A stretch of DNA of 34,684 bases, from positions 1-34,684 of the forward strand of contig JALDZX010000109.1 of NCBI GenBank assembly GCA_022813865.1, given 5' to 3'. Shown piece by piece: positions 1-28,427 of this stretch (position 1 is the stretch's first letter; each line of letters begins with the position of its first letter). Made by a program: the position numbers and the translations under genes. This DNA is from Xylographa opegraphella. Taxonomy: Eukaryota. The notes under the pieces were generated by a model that was not told where the DNA came from, searched no databases, and saw only the letters and a list, made by a program, of their open reading frames with translations.

Positions 1-83
1 TCCTAACCGCTTTCAAACTAGCCTGAGTCCCGGGTGCGCTTTAGTCCCGTTCCGTCTATCACTTATTAAGGTGCCATGTAACA
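1..83. repeat. End of a young, un-RIPped LTR inserted into the gypsy pol 5' region
   Basis: About 50% GC with CpA/TpG intact, ending TGTAACA at 77-83, then a switch to RIPped AT-rich sequence. The other end is outside the window. Confidence 0.6.
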
Positions 84-199
84 CGCCGTTACAATTTTCA
101 ACTTTAAACTAAATTTAAATAATAATGATCGACGAGTCATCAAGAAAGGAAAACAAACGATATATAAAATCATTTCCTGTTATGATTCATTAATATTAT

Positions 200-3100
200 A
201 AAGAAATAATTTTTAATATAATTATTATAGCCAGGTATTATATTATTTTAATTTTATTTTAATGGATTAAATATAACGTATTTTTAAACTGGGATAAAAA
301 AGTATTTATTAAGAAGTATATTAATCGCGTTATTAATATATATTTTATATATCGATAAAGAACGGTAGTAAATAAAAAAATCGAAAATCGAATAAAATTA
401 TAAAAATTTTATTTTCGAATAAGAACGATTTTACTTAAGGGTTCGACTCGATATATATTAATAAAGGTTAGCAGAGCAAATTAAATCAGAGTTTGAAAAG
501 AAGTAACGTATCTTTCAATATCCCTACAAAATATAAAATATAAACATGGCTTTTTTAAAAAGAGAAAGAGTTTAATACTTTATTTAAGTATCAATTTTAA
601 GACTATGAAATCAACATCGAATCAGGAAAAAGCCAACATTTCTATTTATATAAAATATGTTAAAAAAAGAACTTCGAGAGCTACGCAAATATATAAATAA
701 AAATTTAAAGAAAGAATTTATAATAAAATTAAAACTTTTAGCAGAATATTTCGTGATATTTATGTTTAAGAAAAACGAAAATTTGAGATCTTGCATTGAT
801 TATCAAAAGTTAAACAATATTATTATTAAAAATCGATATTCTTTACCAAAAATTAGCGAAATACGAAACAAATTTATTAAAATAAATATTTTTATCAAGC
901 TTGATCTTAAAGGCGTATACAATTTAATCAAAATAAAAAACTGCATTTCAAAACAAATATAAATACTACGAGTATTAAATTATATTTTTTAAATTAATTA
1001 ATGCACTAGCTATTTATTAAACATTAATTAGTAGCGTAATAAAAATACAGTTGAATTTAACAATAGTAGTTTATTTAAACGATATATTTACTTACTCGAA
1101 ATCAGTAGAGAAATTTGTAAGATATATACAGAAAATACTTACATATTTAGAAAAAGCAGAATTGCTTTTTAAATCAGAAAAATGTAAATTCGGCAAGGAC
1201 GAAGTAGTTTTTCTGGGATTTATAATTAATGAAAATAAAATCAAAATAAACTCAGAAAAAATACGAGCCATATTTAAATGACTTTAATTAGTAACAACAA
1301 AAGAAATCTTGGAATTTTTAAACTTTACAAACTTTAACAGAATTTTCATTGAAAAATATTTTAAAAAAGCGATACCTTTAACGAATCTAATATATAAAAA
1401 TACAATTTCATCAAGAACTCGAACCAACAACGAGCCTTTGAAATTTTGAAGAAAAATTATATAAAGTTACCAGTTTTAACAATATTTTAAGTAAAAGAAT
1501 CTGCAAGAATGAAAACAGACGCATTAAATTTAGCCATAAAAATATATTTACTGTAAATATAAAATGGGAAATAGCACTCTTTTGTATATTTTTTTAAGAA
1601 AAATATTATAAATAAAACAAAACTATCATATTCACGACAAGGAACTACTCGCTATAATAATATTTATTCAAAACTAAAAAGTATATACAGAAAGTTGCTC
1701 AAAATGTACTATTTATATAAATTATAAAAATTTATTAAGTTTTACTACGACAAAAGTACTCAATAGAAAATAAATACGATGGGCAGAACTTTTTTAAAAT
1801 AATACAAATTCAAAATTATATATATATCAGGCAAAGACAATGGGAGAGCAAATTCATTTAGTAGAAAAAAGAATTTAATAAATAAAAAATTAATGAATAA
1901 AGCATTGTTATAAAGAAATAGCGATAAAGCTTTTATTTTTACAAGACAAATCGCCGTTTTCGAAATAAAAACGATTGCAAAAAACCTGACAGGGCTATTA
2001 GCAGAGAAAATAAATAAATATTATAGTAATAAATCAACGAATGGCCACTCAGAAATTATTATAACAATAAAATTTATAAGAAAAAACTATGAATTCCCGA
2101 ACATAAAAAAGTATGTAAAGAAATATATCAAAAAAGACGTATTGTGTTAAAAGAATAAATTAATAAGGCATGCAGTATATAAAAACATTCAATTTTCAAA
2201 CGTTTTGAAGAAATCATAGGAATAAATTTTAGTTAACTTTATTACAAAATTTTAAAGTTAAAAAATTTAACTAAAGAACTGAAATATAATTCGATAATAA
2301 TATTTATAAATAAATCTATCAAATACTCAATTATCGTACCTTTTAAAAAATATTTATAATAAAATAACTCGCTTTTCTCTTATTGAACAGGTTAATAAAA
2401 GATTATAGATTTTAGCAGAAATAATATTTAAAAAAATAAAACGTTTATATTAAACTTTTAAAAAACTTTAATATTTAAATTAAAAGTTAAATTAAAGATA
2501 TTAATCGCTTATTACTTATAAATAAATAATTAAACGAAAAAAATGAATCAAAGTTTGAAAGTGTATGTACGACACTTTATTAACTTTAAAAAATATTATT
2601 ATTACCGTTGAAACAATTGGCACTAAACGATAAATAATTTGTAAAAACAAGAATATCGCCTTTTTCGTAAATATAAAACGACATTCAGAATTGTTAAAGA
2701 TAAAAGATCAAAATTTTAATATTGATAAAATAACAATATTAATTAAAGATTTGAAAAATACACATAAAGCGTTATTTAAAAAATTAATAAAATAACAAGA
2801 AAATTGCTACTGCAAGATATAAAAATGTAAAGAATGAACCTTAATTTAAAAAAAGGAATAAAGTATATTTTTTTTACTAAGAATTTAACAATCATCAAGA
2901 ATCGAATCAAGAAGTTTAATTATAACAAAATCGAATCATTTTTGATCAAGTAAATTAAAAAACTAATTAATTACCTTCTCCATCTGCCAAAAAATGCGAA
3001 AATATATTTAGTATTTTATATTTTATTGCTAAAACCAGTAAACGCAAATATTTTATTACAAACAACCTTTCGGTACAATAAAAGAAAAGAACAGGAATTA

Positions 3101-3322
3101 AAAGTAAAGAAAATCCTGGACAAGCAAAGTCAGAACTATTTAATTAAATAAAAGAAATACCCAGAATTAAATAATATTTAAAAATCACTTACTAGCCTTG
3201 AAAACTACCAGGAATTTTTTTAATAATATTATTAAACAGAGCTAAAATCTCGAAAGGAAAAGCTTTTAAAGTCCCAGGAGAAAAGAAAGAAAGAGAAAAG
3301 ACCTCGAAGAAATCGTTGGTAA
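200..3322 (+). pseudogene. pol: pol polyprotein relic (protease end, RT, RNase H, integrase, chromodomain)
   Basis: RT: LRSCIDYQKLNNIIIKNRYSLP and KLDLKGVYNLI (ORF 657-962), YLND (=YLDD) at 1072-1083. RNase H: TDA ~1515, NYHIHDKELLAII 1621-1659, GKDNGRANSFSR ~1830-1865. Integrase zinc-finger GH at ~2043. Probable natural stop TAA at 3320-3322. Confidence 0.93.
3095..3230 (+). other. Chromodomain-coding segment at the integrase C-terminus
   Basis: Reads ELKVKKILDKQSQNYLIK*KKYPELNNI*KSLTSL, matching E(Y)xVExILD...YLIKWKGY....TWEP with both TGG codons changed to TAA. Confidence 0.85.
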
Positions 3323-3352
3323 GGGTTTTCGCTTTTTAACGTTTATTATTTT

Positions 3353-3700
3353 TCAGGGCTTCGATGTTAAATATTTTACGTTGGAAAATATCTTTCGTTC
3401 CTCGTCCTTAATATTTAAAAGACGACGTTTTTTACGACCAAGAGCCTTTTTGAATTTAATTATTCGGCGTTTTATTTTATTCTTTCGTTTTTTTAAATCA
3501 CGACGATCGGCCTCAATAACAATCGAAGAATAATAAACTTTAACGTTAATATAATTTGCGCAGAACTTCGATATTAAAAAGATCTCGTAAAACAAATATT
3601 TCTTAATACAGCGATCGCAAGAATATATCGTGAACTTTCCTTTATTACGAATACTATGCGATTGAATCTTTCAACGTTGAGTATTGATTAATTTATATTT
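3353..3700 (-). pseudogene. Antisense accessory ORF of element A: Zn(II)2Cys6-like cluster plus basic coiled coil
   Basis: Frame of ORF 3353..3595 extended upstream reads SCDRC-IKKYLF-Y-EIFLISKF-CAN-Y-INVKVY-Y. The three Tyr (TAC/TAT) fall at Cys positions of C-x2-C-x6-C-x8-C-x2-C-x6-C. Followed by RRDLKKRKNKIKRRIIKFKKALGRKKRRLLNIKDEERKIF. Start position approximate. Confidence 0.7.
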
Positions 3701-3763
3701 TAATATAATATAAAAAAGCTGGTAAAATTCTTTCGAAAGCAAGAATCTGGCGAAGGGAGTTAG

Positions 3764-4122
3764 TAATAAAATTCTGACCAATGTTGTATAAAATAAAAAT
3801 CCGGGGGATTTTATTTCGAATGCCTTTTCTGTCTTCTCAAAAGGTATAAAAATATAATTTCTTTGCCTTAATGGCCTTCTCGAAAGGCATGGGAGGCATT
3901 TTAAAATAAAACTTTTATATAAAATGAAGGGTTTCCTGTATTATACAAAACGTATTCAACTCATGTCATAATTTTAAATTAGTGAATTTTAATATAATAC
4001 TGTACGAAAATTATTACTCTTGAAAAACGATTAATCTGTTACGATGTTTTTTTATTTATTCATTGACGAATTCAATTTAAATCCTTAATCGAATTATACT
4101 AATGAGAAGCAGAATCGTAATA
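3764..4122 (+). repeat. 3' LTR of element A (LTR family A)
   Basis: Follows the purine tract GGCGAAGGGAGTTAG. TA...TA ends are RIPped TG...CA. Homologous to 28106-28427 and to 16389-16450 (reverse). Confidence 0.88.
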
Positions 4123-7100
4123 AAACGAAGTCGATAACAGCTTATTCGAAAGCATTTTACGTAATAAATTCAACGTTTATTATTCCGGCGGTAAACACGC
4201 GTTTTTTTACGAAATAGAATTATTTATTGAAATTCTTTATATTATAAAATTAAACTTTTTATTTTTAAATATTATAACGTCGCTGTAAAAATTAATTTAT
4301 ACATTTATTACTAATCGCGCAGCGAGTTAAAGGCTTTCGTATTCTTTACAAAAGTTTATTAATAAAAGTTAGCGAATATTACGATTACAAAATTTCATTT
4401 ATAAGTTTTTTTAACATATTTATAACGTTTATTATACGTAACGAATAACTTTTCGTTTGATAAATAATAAAGTTCGAATAGAATTTCGAACGTTCGAATT
4501 TTAAATTAAATTTCGTTTAATTATTTATTGAACGAATAATAATTGCTATTAAATTTTAAAACTTTATGGCGATTTATAAATTATTTAAATAATATTAATA
4601 TTAAATTTTTGATTACGCCGGTCGGGATCGAATTGATTCTTTATTTTTTACAGTTAACGGAGTAAATTTTATGAAAAATATATATTTAAAGCGTTAACAG
4701 CGAATTACTATAGATCGTACGCGCTGGCGAAGTTAAAGCGAATTATTTAAAAATAAAAAAGTAACGATATAAACCTTGTTAAATTAAGTTATTATAGATA
4801 TAATTTATTTTAATCAAATATTTAATACAAACTAATATTTACTGTATACCGCGGATTTTGAAATCAATTTTTTAATTTAATAAACTTTACTTTTAATAAA
4901 ATTTAAATTACTTTATTTATATTTTTATGGATTTATATCAATTCTTTAATAAAATAAAGAAAAGTCTTCGAATTCTCTATACAAATTAAAACTCGTTAAT
5001 TCGATTTATTTTTAAATATATTTTGTAAAATTCGAAGTTTCGTAGTAATTTTTAGCGCTTAAAACCCAAGTTTAAAATTTAACAAACAAAAACTAAAATT
5101 ATCGTAACTATTATAATTAAAACAATAAAGATTTAAGCGAATTTATTTTAAAATTTATAGTTTAAAATCGTGGCCGTCGCGACGTATATTTTCAATGAAC
5201 TTTGAATCGAAAAAAGTAAAAAACGCCGTTCGAGCTCGCCACGAGTTGAAAATCAATAATCATTTATTTTCGTATTTATAAATATCGTATATATATAATA
5301 AATAATAGAACCTTAATAAAATTTTAAAAACTACGCGATGGAGTTTATATTAAATATTTTATGAATTAAAATTTTACGAATATTTTTCGAATTTAAATTT
5401 TAGATAAAATTTTTATTGTTCGAAACCGCGATATCGTTTTTGACGAAAGATTTTTGTTTATTTTAAAAAAATTAATATAACGACAATAAACCTAATTAAT
5501 TAAATAATTATTGCGCTCGAGAACGAAATTATAAATTAATTTAACGAATTTTTTAAAACGATATAAAAAAGCGAAAACGTATTCGCCGACGTATTTAACA
5601 AAATGAACAAAATGAACAAAATTAACAAAATGAACAAAATTAACAAAATTAACAAAATTAACAAAATTAACAAAATTAACAAAATTAACAAAATTAACAA
5701 AATGAACAAAATTAACAAAATTAGCAAAATTAACAAAATTAACAAAATTAACAAAATTAACAAAATGAGCAAAATGAACAAAATTAACAAAATTAACAAA
5801 ATTCATATATTAAAAAGTAACGGCAAATTTCCTAATTAAAATTAATAAAATATATTTTATAAAACGGTAAAAGATATCGCAATGATTAAAATAAAGAAAT
5901 TTTTGCCGCAAAATTACGAAATAATTAAATTAACCACGAATTTATTTATCAGAATATCGATTTTGGCAACCGAATTTTTACAAAGCGAATTTTCTTTACA
6001 TTAATTTTTTATAGTTAATTTTAAACCGCGTATAATTAGTATTTAGTAAAGCGAAACTAATAACGATTTTACTTTTAATATTTAACGTATTTATATATAC
6101 TTAACAATAGTATTAAATAATAAAAAAACTTCTTAACTAAATTTTTAATAAATAATTCTTTATACAAAGATTTACTAGCGAGATATTTAACGAAATTAAT
6201 ATAATAATTTATTATTCAAAAATTTATTATTCGTAAGTTATTTAAAAATTAGATACTGTTTTTGCTATAAAAGTTCGACGGTTTAAATATTAAAGTTAAA
6301 AAACGTAATAAATTAATTTTAAATAACGTAATTTATAATAAAGAAACGATATCGCGTAGTCGATATGGTAGCCGCGGTCGTATTTAATTAACAATATTAT
6401 TATTTAATAATAATTTTATTAATATTTATAATACTATTAATCGATATTATTACTAAAAAAAGTTATGAAAAGAAAATCGTGCATTTTAAATTTAGATACT
6501 AAAATTAAATTAAGAGATATAAATTCTACGACTTATAATTAAAATTAATAAAAAAATAAAGCAAATTTTAAAATAAAAAAACCAAAAAATAAATAAAAAT
6601 CGACGGCGTCGAAAAAGGGAATTAAATTATACCTTTAACCTAAATGTTCAAGAACAAAATCGACGAATTTGAATAATTAATTAATTAAAAAAATAAAATG
6701 TGCGTACGAAAGGATTTACAAACAATTAATAAAAAAATATACGTTTTTATTCTAATATTTAAGGTATTGTAACTGCTCGTTATTTTAATGATTGATTTTA
6801 ATTTTAAAATTTAATAAATCGACGTCGTTAATATTTTTTTAAATTTACAGTTTAATTATCGAATATACGTTAAATCTTAAAACGGGTACGAACGTTCGAG
6901 TTTTATATTTTTTTAAAGTTTTTTACGAGTTAAAAAAGTTATTTTATTTATAATAATAAATTTTTACTGTAATTTTGAAGGGAGTTGATTTGTATTCGAT
7001 TCTCGGCATCGATTGTTTATTTTATAATAAAAAGGTTTTCGTTTTTTCGTCGATAATATAATATTAACGTATTTTAAAATTTATAAAAAAGCGTAATAAA

Positions 7101-8758: not shown

Positions 8759-10669
8759 TTTCGTTTTTCCTTTTTGCTAATATTCGAGTACCGAAAAAGG
8801 GCTTTCGCCCGTTTGAACAAGTATTTTATATATTCGTAAACCATTACATAGTATTTACAATATGATCACGTTTTTTACACATTGTATTACTTTGTATTGT
8901 GATAATTATTGATTATTATATTAATAATTAATAAAATAATAAAATTAAACGTTTAACCCGAGGCAAACTTAATTTTGTTTAATAATTATATAAAATTGAT
9001 TTAATAATAAATAGCGAAACAGTTTGATTGACGATTTATTAAAAAGAAATACGAAATTTTTTAAAAAATATATGAATAATCGAAACTTGAAAAACATAAT
9101 AATAATAATATAATATTAATCAAAAACTTAACTAATTATTATATAATTATATAATTATATCGGGCAGTAACGAGGTTATATAATAATTAAAATTTAAAAT
9201 ATCGTAAATAGCTATTACGATTTTTAATATATAACTTATATTTAAATTATATTGTTAAATTGTTACAAAACGACAATTTTGCGTACGAAAATTAGAAAAT
9301 CGTAAATTTTAATATATTATTTATATTTAAACGATTTTTTATTAATAAATACTATATAATTATAGTAATTAATTTTAACACTATCGCGAATATATTTCGA
9401 TTGAATTACCGCCCTGTATGATACGAGTTTTACTTAGTCTTTAATTAATTACGAACTGATTTTACCTCTGATTAAACTTTATATATAATAAATTATAAAT
9501 ATATTAAGACCTAGTTATTTACGGTTATTTTGAATTAAACTTTATAACATTTATAATTAGTACTAATCGTTTTTAAATTATAATTAATTTGCAATCAGTT
9601 TTTGACCGGTTTTTAATTTATATTATTATTTATTAATATTCAATTATAAGTTTCTTAATTTAATACTTTAAAAAATGTATTAATCAAGTAATTAAAATAA
9701 TTATTAATTATAACTAAGCAAGCCAGTTTTGTATTTATTAAAATATATATAAACCTTTGATATACTTTATGCTTATAATACTGTAAATTATTAAATAACA
9801 ATAAAAGCTTAATACAGTTATTTATATTTAAATATAATTAAAAATTATAAAATATTACGCTAAATACTTAATAAATTATAAATAAAAATTCGTTTGAATT
9901 TTTATTAGCAATTTAATTTAGTAAAGCCCTTTATCGTTAATTTATTACATATTTAATAAATCTAAATTCGATTTTATTTATTATTATTATTATTATCGAT
10001 ATTTAAACCATCGATATTTTTATTCTTTTGATTTAAATCGATATTTTGATTTCGTAATTCCGATTATTAATAATACTCAAATTAAAACATTTCTCGTTAT
10101 TAATTATTATAAATTTTTAATTCAAATTTTGATCCTAATTTCGATTCTGATTCAAATGTTAATCGTAATTTTAATTTTAATTCTCGTTTTCGTTTTATTT
10201 TTTATTTTCGTACTAATTCTCGTTAAAGTTTTTATTTTGCTTCGTCTTCGATTTTGAGTTTTGAGTGTATTTTTATATTATACTTATTTTTCAACAATTA
10301 ACTATACTACGATTGTTACCTTGTAGCGAAACAGATTTAAAACGTTATATAAAATTTTTAATATTAATTTTAAAATTTCAATTATTATTCAAATTAAAAT
10401 AATTAATTAAAAATCGTAAACATATTTCATTTTATTTTAAAAGATTCTCAACTTTAAATCTCTTAAATATTTTTATAGTATAAAGAAAATTAAATCGTAA
10501 CTTGCGATATAAACTTGTAAATTTCATTATATTAGTATTTTAAAAGTATATTTCTACGATAATTATTATAGGATAAATAATATAGATTTAAATTAACATA
10601 TTTATATAAATTAACGATCGACTCCAATATATTTCAAAATAAAATATATAGTAATAAATAAAAGTCGAA

Positions 10670-10940
10670 GTTTATAACAATAAAAATTAATTCCATAATA
10701 ATAAAAATTAATTTTATAGCAATAAAAGTTAATTTTATCACAGTAAAAATTAATTTTATGATAACAAGAGTTATTTCTATAGCAGCAAAAGTCAATTTTA
10801 TAGCAGTAAAAATCATTTTTATAACAGTAAAAGTCATTTTTACAGCAGCAAAAATGTAGCAGCCAAAGAATTTTGTAGCAGTAAAAACATAATAATAAGA
10901 AAGTTTTGTAACAGTAATAATTAAAATTACAACAACGGTA
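10670..10940. repeat. Degenerate 21-bp tandem repeat (heptad periodicity if coding)
   Basis: Units such as ATAGCAGTAAAAATCATTTTT; the minus-strand ORFs 10611-10955 and 10634-10972 show 7-aa periodicity. Confidence 0.8.
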
Positions 10941-16096: not shown

Positions 16097-16235
16097 CTGC
16101 CTGCCTATTTGCCTGCTTGTTTATTTACCTGCCTGTTTATTTGCCTGCCTGCCTATTTGCCTGCTTGCTTGTTTGCCTGCCTGCCTATTTGCCTGCCTGC
16201 CTATTTGCCTGCCTGCCTATTTGCCTGCCTGCCTG
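16097..16235. repeat. (TGCC)-rich microsatellite inside the family-B LTR
   Basis: CTGCCTGCCTATTTGC units, expanded relative to the sister LTR at ~19640-19670. Confidence 0.9.
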
Positions 16236-16388
16236 ATTTCAGGGTTTTTACTTTATTTCGCTGATTAATAAAGAACTTCCTGCCTAATTAGAAAATTATA
16301 TATATATATATAAACAAAGTTTTCGGTTTTATAGATTATTAATCTTTTATTTTATATTATATTTATTCTGTTTTTAAACGTAGTTGTA

Positions 16389-16576
16389 TGTTACGATCCT
16401 GCCTCTCACTAGTATAGTTCGATTAAGGATCTGGGTTGGATTCGTCAATGNNNNNNNNNNNNNNNNNNNNNNNNNNNNNNNNNNNNNNNNNNNNNNNNNN
16501 NNNNNNNNNNNNNNCTTCCCGTTGCCGCTAGTCCCAACTGGTGGTAGCTTACCTGGTCAAGGTGAGAACCTTAACA
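16389..16576 (-). mobile_element. Young un-RIPped family-A LTR element collapsed into an assembly gap (Ns 16451-16514)
   Basis: TG...CA ends with perfect TSD TTGTA (16384-16388, 16577-16581). 16389-16450 is the reverse complement of the LTR-A 3' end with CpA intact. Right end reads TGTTAAGGTTCTCACC on minus vs TGATAAGGTTCTGACC at 28106. Confidence 0.88.
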
Positions 16577-19609: not shown

Positions 19610-19824
19610 TATTATAATTTTAATTTGCAAGGCTTTAATCTGCCTGTCTGTCTGTTGATTTATTTATCTGGCTACAGAGCTTTTGTTTTATTTCGTTATT
19701 TAATAAAGGGTTTCCTGCCTAATGAGGAAACTTTATATATATATAAATAAAGATTTCGAGTTTATAGATCATTAATCTTTTACTTTATATTATATTTAGC
19801 CTGCTTTTAGCCGTAATTGTGATA
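19610..19824. repeat. Family-B LTR
   Basis: Direct repeat of 16063-16388 plus 16582-16584; ends TGTGATA (RIPped TGTGACA). Confidence 0.85.
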
Positions 19825-20704
19825 TTTAATATACGTAATTATATATATACGCGGCTTAATATCGTTTTCATCTTAAAATAAATTAATACTTTGATAATTC
19901 TATAGAATATTACGATTGCGTATTAAAAACTTAATTTTATTACGTTCGATTGAGAATTAAACTTAAAATAATCTCTAAAAATAATAAAAATCTTAATTTT
20001 ATTTACTACTTCGATTATGATTATATAATAAATAAACAAAATTAAAAATTAATTTTTAATTATATATATATATTTAGCAAAGGCCAAGTTATCTAAATAA
20101 ATTGAAAATAAAAATCGATATTTATTTTAATTATTAAAAGTAAGCATATAATTTTATCGATCTGCGCGAAAAAATAACTTTAAATTATATAATTATTTAA
20201 AAACCTCGATTGTAGTAAATATTTAAATATCGATTAAAATAATATTAATATTCTACAAAATAATAAATTCAAAAAAACTTATCAATGCAGTTAAAAAATC
20301 AGGTATTATTAACGTTAGTTAAAATATTTATATTTACGAAAAATCGAAAAATATTAATATTATTTATTATTTTATTAGGGATTTTTATTATAAAAAACCA
20401 GATTCAGATTGGTTTCAAATGTATACAAAATATAATCACAGACGAATTGATTAAATTATTATTTAATTTTAATCTTAAAAGATTCATTATTTAATGAAAT
20501 TTTAAAAGTAGTAAAAACTAGCGATTTAATAAATATTAAATAAAAATATTAAAAATAACGTTGTTTAATAAAATATTCTTTATATTATTTCAAAATAATA
20601 TAAACGTTGATTTTTTAAACTAGCGTAGTCGTATATAAAAAAGCATTTTTCCTTATAAAAAAGTTTTCTTTTACGCATTTTGAGAGATAATTCAATAAAG
20701 CATT

Positions 20705-20853
20705 GATTTCATCATTTTGATTTCATCATTTTGATTTCATCATTTTGATTTCATCATTTTGATTTCATCATTTTGATTTCATCATTTTGATTTCATCATT
20801 TTGATTTCATCATTTTGATTTCATCATTTTGATTTCATCATTTTGATTCCATC
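20705..20853. repeat. 14-bp tandem repeat (GATTTCATCATTTT)n, ~10 units
   Basis: Near-perfect units directly visible. Confidence 0.95.
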
Positions 20854-20949
20854 AATTCATTTCTATTAAATATCACGAAATAGAAATTTTAACGCGTAAA
20901 TATAAAATTTAACAAAATTAACGAAATATTAATTTAATCGTTTAAAAAT

Positions 20950-27657: not shown

Positions 27658-27679
27658 GTATCAGAAACCTCCGCGGATC

Positions 27680-27825
27680 CGTTAAACTTTTAATTATTAA
27701 ACTTTTAATTACTAACCTTTTAATTATTAAACTTTTAATTACTAACCTTTTAATTATTAAACTTTATATTATTAAACTTTAAATTATTAAACTTTAAATT
27801 ATTAAACTTTAAAATTATTAAATTT
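27680..27825. repeat. 15-bp tandem repeat (TAAACTTTTAATTAT)n
   Basis: About 9 degenerate units directly visible. Confidence 0.85.
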
Positions 27826-28105
27826 AGCCCTTCGAGTTATAGTCTATCTATACGATAATTTAATATTAACTTTACAATTTAATGTTTTATTTAAACCCGT
27901 TAAACATTTTTTTCGCAGTCAATATCAAAAGTAAAAATTGCTAATTAATATAAATTTTATTAATTTATTAAAAAAATCTATAAAGCGTAATACGAAATTA
28001 CGTTAATTACTTTTTTATTTAATAATTTCCTTAATTTTGTAATTTAATAAAGTATACAAAATTAATATTTTTTTAAAAAATAATATTCCTCCTCGTAAAA
28101 CTTAG

Positions 28106-28427
28106 TGATAAGGTTCTGACCAATGTTGTATGAAACAAAGGTCGGAGAAACTTTATTCCGGTTGCCTCCTCTGCCTCTCTGTGGAGGGAGGCATGGGAGG
28201 CATTTCAGAACAGAATTTTTATATAGGCTAAAGGATTTCCTTTATTGTAAAAGGCGTGTTCAACTCGTGTTATAGTCTTAGAATAATAAGCTTCAATATA
28301 ATTATTATACGAAAATTATTACTCTTGAAAAACGATCAACATGTTACTGTGCCTTCATATTTATTTATTAACGAATTCAACCCAGATCCTTAATCGAACT
28401 ATATTAATGAGAAGCAGAATCGTAATG
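28106..28427 (+). repeat. Solo LTR, family A
   Basis: Homologous along its length to 3764-4122. Flanked by CTTAG (28101-28105) and TTTAG (28428-28432), a TSD with one C>T change. Confidence 0.88.

Follow-up and report, generated by a model that had tools for sequence, protein, structure and literature searches.

Background

Retrotransposons that carry an additional antisense gene lying between pol and the 3′ long terminal repeat (LTR) are already known in fungi and in plants. In fungi, this position is held by brtn, which was published in 2011 from Boty-like elements of Botrytis and is found also in Sclerotinia (cited in PMC7264820, PMC8365987, PMC4227169 and PMC5987419). In plants, genes of the aORF-3R type lie between pol and the 3′ LTR of Grande (gene23, maize), RIRE2 (rice), Retand (Silene) and PvRetro13 (Phaseolus) (PMC7264820). 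The antisense open reading frame (ORF) of Retand carries a transposase_28 domain and that of PvRetro13 an SMC-like domain; the same review describes the aORF-3R proteins as having no clear similarity to known proteins and an unknown function (PMC7264820). Here we report an antisense gene of this layout in a stretch of 34,684 nucleotides (nt) from Xylographa opegraphella ([GenBank:GCA_022813865.1], contig JALDZX010000109.1, positions 1 to 34,684, forward strand), referred to below as the window. The window begins inside what reads as the 3′ half of a Ty3/gypsy LTR retrotransposon degraded by repeat-induced point mutation (RIP), and the gene, a pseudogene in this copy, would originally have encoded a protein with six cysteines and a long charged helix.

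The layout of the window gene is that of the aORF-3R genes: pol runs on the plus strand to 3322, the gene lies on the minus strand from 3706 to 3192, and the LTR follows from 3760. With the plant genes it shares position, orientation and a suspected but unproven nuclear or regulatory role, and it may also share with them the presence of an ORF in many copies of the family (PMC7264820). It differs from them in host kingdom, in the lineages of the elements and in sequence, to which no relation was seen; moreover, the plant proteins, as far as that review describes them, are without a zinc-cluster-like module (PMC7264820). With brtn of Boty it has in common, by the papers cited above, a fungal Ty3/gypsy host element, a pol that is plausibly of the chromodomain type and a gene on the opposite strand in front of the 3′ LTR. 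An earlier interpretation of this locus, made without database searches (the sequence-only reading), had proposed a GAL4-type zinc-cluster gene that forms no part of the canonical gag-pol layout. The layout is not unprecedented, given the published case of brtn. No paper came up in a full-text literature search that combined Zn2Cys6, LTR retrotransposon and antisense.

We regard it as likely that the locus is a real antisense accessory gene, borne by the element between pol and the 3′ LTR. The evidence for this comes mostly from two homologous proteins, in which the frame is open and one of which has cysteine at all six positions of the motif.

A probable antisense gene in the pol-LTR interval

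The minus strand of the window is open from 3670 to 3353 (105 codons), and this frame contains the motif C-x2-C-x6-Y-x8-C-x2-Y-x6-Y at 3619-3530, both as the sequence-only reading had described them. Three cysteine codons are intact (TGC at 3619-3617, TGT at 3610-3608 and TGC at 3562-3560), and tyrosine codons occupy the other three positions (TAC at 3589-3587, TAT at 3553-3551 and TAT at 3532-3530). When the six frames of the window were scanned for the relaxed, stop-free pattern [CY]x2[CY]x6[CY]x5-12[CY]x2[CY]x6-8[CY], this was the single occurrence. Tyrosine makes up 7.2% of the six-frame residues of the window. When the window was simulated 300 times by a first-order Markov model, the same pattern turned up in 11 cases. 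Chance also produced an ORF of at least 105 amino acids (aa): among 3000 simulated versions of the local 438 nt there were 39 that held one, and among 200 of the whole window there were 45. The 105-aa ORF has no Pfam match at E≤10. Taken by themselves, the antisense frame and its motif are suggestive and not decisive.

The gene is judged to be real because it has homologues. When the 105-aa ORF was compared by phmmer with 1.84e9 representative proteins, two matches only were returned, both of them unnamed singletons from ENA: one with 48% identity and E 4e-10, here called P0001, and one with 32% identity and E 7e-5, here called P0002. P0001 (166 aa) is encoded on a contig of 361,890 base pairs (bp) and has a RIP-like composition, while P0002 (177 aa), encoded on an 8,706-bp contig, has an ordinary one. 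The frame is open in both, as the sequence-only reading had expected of relatives. Word-indexed protein searches with the ORF, with P0002 and with a profile (A2), in databases of up to 5.8e9 proteins, found nothing beyond these two. In a three-way alignment, the six motif columns read C,C,Y,C,Y,Y in the window, Y,C,C,Y,Y,Y in P0001 and C at all six in P0002, whose spacing is C-x2-C-x6-C-x8-C-x2-C-x6-C. No cysteine lies outside these six columns in the window ORF, in P0001 or in P0002.

The sequence-only reading had taken the three motif tyrosines for former cysteines, and the relatives bear this out: P0002 has cysteine in all three columns and P0001 keeps a cysteine at the column of Tyr-28 of the window. 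Of the seven tyrosines in the window ORF, these three align with cysteines of P0002, and opposite the remaining ones P0002 has His, Gly, Ser and Ala. The rule that tyrosine stands for a former cysteine thus holds not for every tyrosine, but exactly at the three motif positions. We also counted the window codons that are identical to a codon for the aligned P0002 residue or derivable from one by C-to-T or G-to-A changes alone. There were 60 such codons among 100 and 44 among 62, together 104 of 162, with about 33 expected; permutation controls (2000 each) gave 19.8±3.8 (maximum 31) and 13.0±3.1 (maximum 25). To a large degree, then, the window gene corresponds to a close counterpart of P0002 altered by RIP. 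Although the window gene, P0001 and P0002 differ from each other by 52-70% in protein sequence, they begin in a common region and end at a common point; coding capacity has been kept among these diverged members.

The open frame noticed by the sequence-only reading represents no more than the central part of a gene, longer and broken, that extends over about 3706-3192 (Table 1). In tblastn searches of P0002 and P0001 against the window, frame -1 aligned at 3700-3401 and frame -3 at 3404-3201. Two ungapped codons beyond the alignment put Met1 of P0002 on the ATA at 3706-3704; the change from ATG would have been a G-to-A change in TpG context. The passage from frame -1 to frame -3 takes place at about 3386-3383, and two other contigs of the same genome are without the 2 nt at 3383 and are in frame there. 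The 105-aa ORF ends at 3353 because of this frameshift, and its end is therefore an accident of this copy. The true ends of the window gene, P0001 and P0002 coincide to within 3 codons. At the other side, the position of the start codon lies 55 nt inside the LTR boundary (3706 versus 3760). The gene is convergent on the stop codon of pol and precedes the purine-rich tract, where the sequence-only reading had placed it. With its start lost, two in-frame stops, a 2-nt frameshift and three cysteines gone, the window copy is dead.

The same minus frame is also open for 89 codons farther upstream (3674-3940), through the polypurine tract into the LTR, and only the TGA at 3673-3671 parts it from the antisense gene. 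A similar open peptide is found in the corresponding frame of the second LTR copy (about 28102-28300). This upstream frame could be due to chance, or it could be an N-terminal extension or an upstream ORF.

Table 1 Coordinates of the antisense gene and of the element that carries it
Feature	Position (nt)	Strand	Remark or basis
Open frame, stop to stop, 105 aa	3353..3670	-	Stop TGA at 3355-3353
Six-position Cys motif	3530..3619	-	C,C,Y,C,Y,Y in the window; six Cys in P0002
Full antisense accessory gene, about 171 codons, pseudogene in this copy	3192..3706	-	tblastn of P0001 and P0002
Lost start codon, ATA at the position of P0002 Met1	3704..3706	-	Alignment and ungapped extension
In-frame TGA where P0002 has Arg	3671..3673	-	tblastn alignment
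Two extra bases, frameshift	3383..3384	-	Frame -1 to frame -3
In-frame TAA where P0002 has Gln	3336..3338	-	tblastn alignment
Terminal stop of antisense gene	3192..3194	-	At most 3 codons from the ends of P0001 and P0002
Convergent overlap of pol 3′ end and antisense gene 3′ end, 131 nt	3192..3322	both	Gene coordinates
Ty3/gypsy pol, degraded, with many stops and frame changes	1..3322	+	Truncated by window start; stop TAA at 3320-3322
Chromodomain-like end of pol	3095..3238	+	Stops at expected Trp positions; top PDB matches are HP1 chromodomains
Purine-rich tract (putative polypurine tract)	~3740..3759	+	Adjoins LTR; function suggested by position
3′ LTR	3760..4121	+	Second copy in window; contig depth and divergence points
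Second LTR copy, same family	28102..28426	+	76-80% identity to 3760..4121

Further copies of the segment were found in a comparison contig set (X1); this set probably represents the source genome, and for that reason does not count as independent. At ≥80% identity, 3320-3740 is covered there by about 2-5 further contigs. Among those listed, one joins pol to the antisense gene (2900-3017 and 3162-3382), and two join the antisense gene to the LTR (3360-3821; 3408-3801 with 3898-4120). The differences among the copies comprise 361 transitions versus 85 transversions. Two other contig sets of the same study, X2 and X3, gave no match to the window, which is no proof of absence. The sequence-only reading had named three findings that would speak against it, namely residues other than cysteine in the tyrosine columns of better-preserved relatives, a frame that is not open in them, and a segment unique to this copy; on all three points the data came out the other way.

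The encoded protein

The charge of P0002 is strongly segregated along the chain. A basic N-terminus (residues 1-29, net +5) precedes the cysteine module; behind the module lie a very basic region (60-100, 16 K+R, net +12), an acidic region (101-141, net -7) and an acidic, hydrophobic tail (142-177, net -6). An AlphaFold2 model of P0002, built from the three-sequence alignment, has a mean predicted local distance difference test score (pLDDT) of 64 and contains a single helix of about 84 residues (58-141), in which block means of pLDDT reach 90-97 over residues 71-120. This agrees with the long helix that the sequence-only reading had expected behind the cluster, as far as a model can tell. A homodimer model of two copies of P0002 22-142 with four Zn scored 0.54, compared with 0.00 for the best of 3 controls; the runs agreed in ≥86% of contacts and the pLDDT of the partner was ≥84. 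In calibration, for which the set was modelled without ligand, the mark used for dimers was reached by 21 of 30 solved pairs versus none of 23 solved single chains, and for eukaryotes by 17 of 29 solved pairs versus none of 30 solved single chains. The model supports, without showing, self-association of P0002. Its least-error contacts (78-110, 82-106, 89-103 and 92-96) indicate that the predicted pairing is antiparallel.

GAL4-type clusters follow the pattern C-x2-C-x6-C-x5-12-C-x2-C-x6-8-C, carry basic DNA-contacting residues and are followed by a dimerisation coil, which in GAL4 itself is parallel. The six cysteines of P0002 have this spacing, and in the window and P0001 the corresponding columns hold C or Y. 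Zn_clus (PF00172) is the sole Pfam family reported for P0002 at E≤10. P0002 further resembles the fungal Zn(II)2Cys6 proteins in having two C-x2-C-x6-C halves, in its fungal setting, and in the long helix, predicted and possibly self-pairing, directly behind the cluster. The differences are as follows. First, P0001 and the window ORF have no Zn_clus match at E≤10. Second, searches of PDB sequences at E≤10 gave no Zn2Cys6 chain among the 4 matches of profile A2 or the 9 of P0002. Third, an Atlas search with P0002 22-66, restricted to named clusters, had a best score of 0.80 and gave no Zn_clus cluster. Fourth, the basic charge of P0002 lies behind its cluster (60-100) and not within it, and the modelled dimer is antiparallel, unlike GAL4. 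Finally, P0002 is far shorter than typical zinc-cluster regulators and is without a Fungal_trans domain.

Several observations weigh directly against a gene for a zinc-cluster regulator at this place. Regarding the protein, P0002 matches Zn_clus with E 0.33 and 11.5 bits versus a cutoff of 21, and its residues 27-44 align to positions 16-34 of the model, so that the first half of the motif falls, out of register, on the second half of Zn_clus. The cysteine module (30-59) is acidic (3 K+R, 5 D+E, net -2) and is poorly modelled (pLDDT 42-55). The antiparallel model lays the basic helix on the acidic helix of the partner, which speaks against a free basic DNA-binding surface. Regarding the gene, the family is tiny, with only two proteins among 1.84e9 and 5.8e9. 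No loci of relatives were found in the metagenome contigs of JGI (including a scan with the degenerate motif), in IMG/VR or in the genome contigs of GTDB. The antisense placement behind pol is read only in the window element and in other contigs of the same genome, P0001 and P0002 entering as proteins. Not every copy in this genome is whole: stretches such as 3429-3688 and 3509-3689 are skipped in several contigs. Among 40 variants listed for other copies there was no T>C at 3588, 3552 or 3531, from which we draw no conclusion.

In view of the low Zn_clus score, the alignment out of register, the acidic module and the PDB searches, the GAL4-type Zn(II)2Cys6 membership proposed in the sequence-only reading is not supported. 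P0002 may be called zinc-cluster-like, and is not a demonstrable member of the GAL4 type.

Alternative explanations

The alternative that survives best is that the gene is simply brtn, known from the Boty-like elements of Botrytis and Sclerotinia, and that the window holds a relative degraded by RIP, in which case only the reading of the cysteines would be new. Position, orientation and type of host agree, brtn lying antisense in front of the 3′ LTR of a fungal Ty3/gypsy element with a chromodomain (PMC7264820, PMC4227169). In Monilinia, a transcript matching a truncated Pol together with BRTN suggests an overlap like the 131 nt of the window (PMC5987419). The Atlas look-alikes of the whole P0002, which are unnamed clusters of hypothetical proteins from Ascomycota (score 0.95, 226/256 features), none of them carrying Zn_clus, would also fit. 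However, BRTN gave BLAST matches in 2018 and is thus in public databases, yet no named protein was returned by our protein searches, which argues against a close relation; the two genes are compared here by description only. In addition, the 2020 review gives no clear similarity to other proteins for any aORF-3R protein (PMC7264820). We consider an identity with brtn unlikely.

The segment could also be a fragment of a host gene for a zinc protein that was transduced by one lineage of retrotransposons and is carried passively, with no role in their life cycle. The rarity of the family and the copies that skip parts of the segment are in line with such an origin. But a passenger is hardly expected to stay open, from a shared start region to a shared end, across three sequences as diverged as these, and the segment is present, joined to pol and LTR, on 2-5 other contigs of the same genome, whereas transduced ORFs typically occur in one or few copies (PMC7264820). 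This explanation seems improbable to us.

It is more improbable still that the minus frame is a by-product and that the plus strand is the coding one, as an extension of pol or as an additional sense ORF. A plus frame of 87 aa at 3270-3533 does overlap the antisense gene, stops are few in several frames of the region, and a mirror frame over a real gene can score high in the Atlas. Against this, the gene finder of the source called both P0001 and P0002 on the antisense strand with a Met start, all cysteines fall in six columns at zinc-cluster spacing, and a confident 84-residue helix with a self-pairing model well above its controls would not be expected of a mirror frame. There is also no Pfam family that matches the plus-strand tail of pol. 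The 87-aa frame is treated here as a by-product of low stop content.

Pure chance, by which an AT-rich and tyrosine-rich sequence would give both an open frame and the C/Y pattern, agrees with the simulations above but is regarded as already refuted by two relatives at E 4e-10 and 7e-5 among 1.84e9 proteins, one of them with all six cysteines, and by a RIP-compatibility far above all 2000 permutations.

Possible role of the antisense gene

Under the explanation that we prefer, a real accessory gene borne by the element, the family of this Ty3/gypsy retrotransposon would carry an extra gene of about 171-177 codons on the opposite strand, from pol to the 3′ LTR. Its product would start with a short N-terminus of basic charge and the six-Cys module, continue through two helices, the first very basic and the second acidic, and finish in an acidic hydrophobic tail. 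In the window copy, C-to-T and G-to-A changes of the RIP type have destroyed the start and created two stops, and through them three codons for Cys (TGY) have become codons for Tyr (TAY); an insertion of 2 nt also shifts the frame. Since the start codon is only 55 nt from the LTR, the geometry implies that the antisense mRNA would have to begin in the 3′ LTR or at its edge. An antisense promoter within the LTR, which the sequence-only reading had suggested, would be the natural assumption. This transcript would probably end inside pol, so that sense and antisense transcripts would overlap by at least 131 nt. The six cysteines may bind zinc, and the charge-segregated helix may pair with itself; the composition and the models together point to a nuclear regulator encoded by the element.

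As to what this regulator would do, the role we prefer is binding of nucleic acid at the LTR or the RNA of the element itself, by which transcription or silencing might be tuned. A specific DNA-binding regulator is possible but doubtful, because in the antiparallel arrangement of the model the basic helix could be hidden. Alternatively, the protein could be an adaptor to other proteins, in integration targeting or in anti-silencing, or it could be an RNA chaperone. The most specific version of the regulatory role would be a miniature fungal-type zinc-cluster regulator of an ascomycete Ty3/gypsy lineage, in which a zinc-binding Cys6 module and a basic helix would be combined with a coil that pairs with itself and with an acidic tail of the activation-like kind. 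Expressed in antisense from the 3′ LTR and overlapping pol, it would bind the LTR or host promoters and control transcription or silencing of the element. We offer this version tentatively, and think it rather unlikely to be right in all its parts.

A possible analogue is HBZ of human T-cell leukemia virus type 1 (HTLV-1), an antisense-encoded basic-zipper protein that is transcribed from the retroviral 3′ LTR. As a working analogy, the protein predicted here would likewise be a small dimerising regulator, encoded in antisense at the 3′ end of a retroelement and expressed from the 3′ LTR. The two have no homology, and HBZ is a protein of a vertebrate retrovirus without a Cys cluster. If the miniature-regulator proposal is true, the gene would be a counterpart of HBZ in fungal retrotransposons, and its product would be the first among the aORF-3R proteins for which a biochemical activity can be recognised. 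In any case, the product of the window gene has readable features: six cysteines at zinc-cluster spacing, a strongly basic helix, a coil predicted to pair with itself and an acidic tail. These turn the "function unknown" of such proteins into testable questions about zinc, dimers, binding of nucleic acid, and activation or repression of the LTR. In addition, reading tyrosine as former cysteine in RIP-mutated DNA can recover lost motifs, given that an intact relative had exactly the residues predicted.

The host element and the rest of the window

The G+C content of the window is 20%. Its RIP indices are 1.01 for TpA/ApT and 0.74 for (CpA+TpG)/(ApC+GpT), and CpA, TpG, CpC and GpG are all depleted across it. 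CpG, in contrast to CpC (1208 versus 399 dinucleotides), is found at about 3.5 times the expectation for 20% G+C. This composition is a signature of heavy RIP. The surviving C and G are mostly within CpG, so that arginine codons (CGN) are inflated in any open frame of the window.

When the plus strand from 1 to 3322 was translated with stops as X, Pfam matches were obtained for RVT_1 (E 3e-8), RT_RNaseH (E 6e-9) and Integrase_H2C2 (E 3e-5). Their order is reverse transcriptase, RNase H, integrase: RVT_1 is at residues 302-409 in frame 1, RT_RNaseH at 531-598 and Integrase_H2C2 at 671-719 in frame 3. On these matches we assign the beginning of the window to a Ty3/gypsy element. The two best matches of the end of pol among PDB sequences are HP1 chromodomains, both weak (E 0.18 and 0.26), and in the HP1 alignment the stop codons of the window fall on Trp positions; the Pfam family Chromo was not detected at the end of pol (E≤10). 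The label of chromovirus for this element is plausible and weakly supported.

The boundaries of the 3′ LTR agree with contigs of the same genome, of which the depth rises several-fold over 3740-4117 and 8-9 of which diverge at 4120-4122. The 3323-3760 interval occurs once in the window, and only the LTR has a second copy there. No homology to pol or to the antisense gene was found next to the second LTR copy (28102-28426); this copy may be a solo LTR, or else a 5′ LTR whose element has diverged too far. A tandem array of 15-nt units is located just upstream of it, at 27668-27832. A run of 64 N (16451-16514) directly adjoins an inverted piece of the LTR end (16391-16450), which shares 85% identity with 4061-4120.

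A pair of direct repeats, 16233-16387 and 19668-19820, which are 75-86% identical and about 3434 nt apart, may be either a duplicated block or the LTR pair of another, short element. Each copy of the pair is preceded by a GCCTGCCTGCCT-type 16-nt tandem array. The other longest frames of the window (105-116 aa) coincide with the tandem arrays at 5525-5884, 10647-10856 and 20675-20884, which have units of 9, 21 and 14 nt, respectively; these frames are repeat artefacts and not genes.

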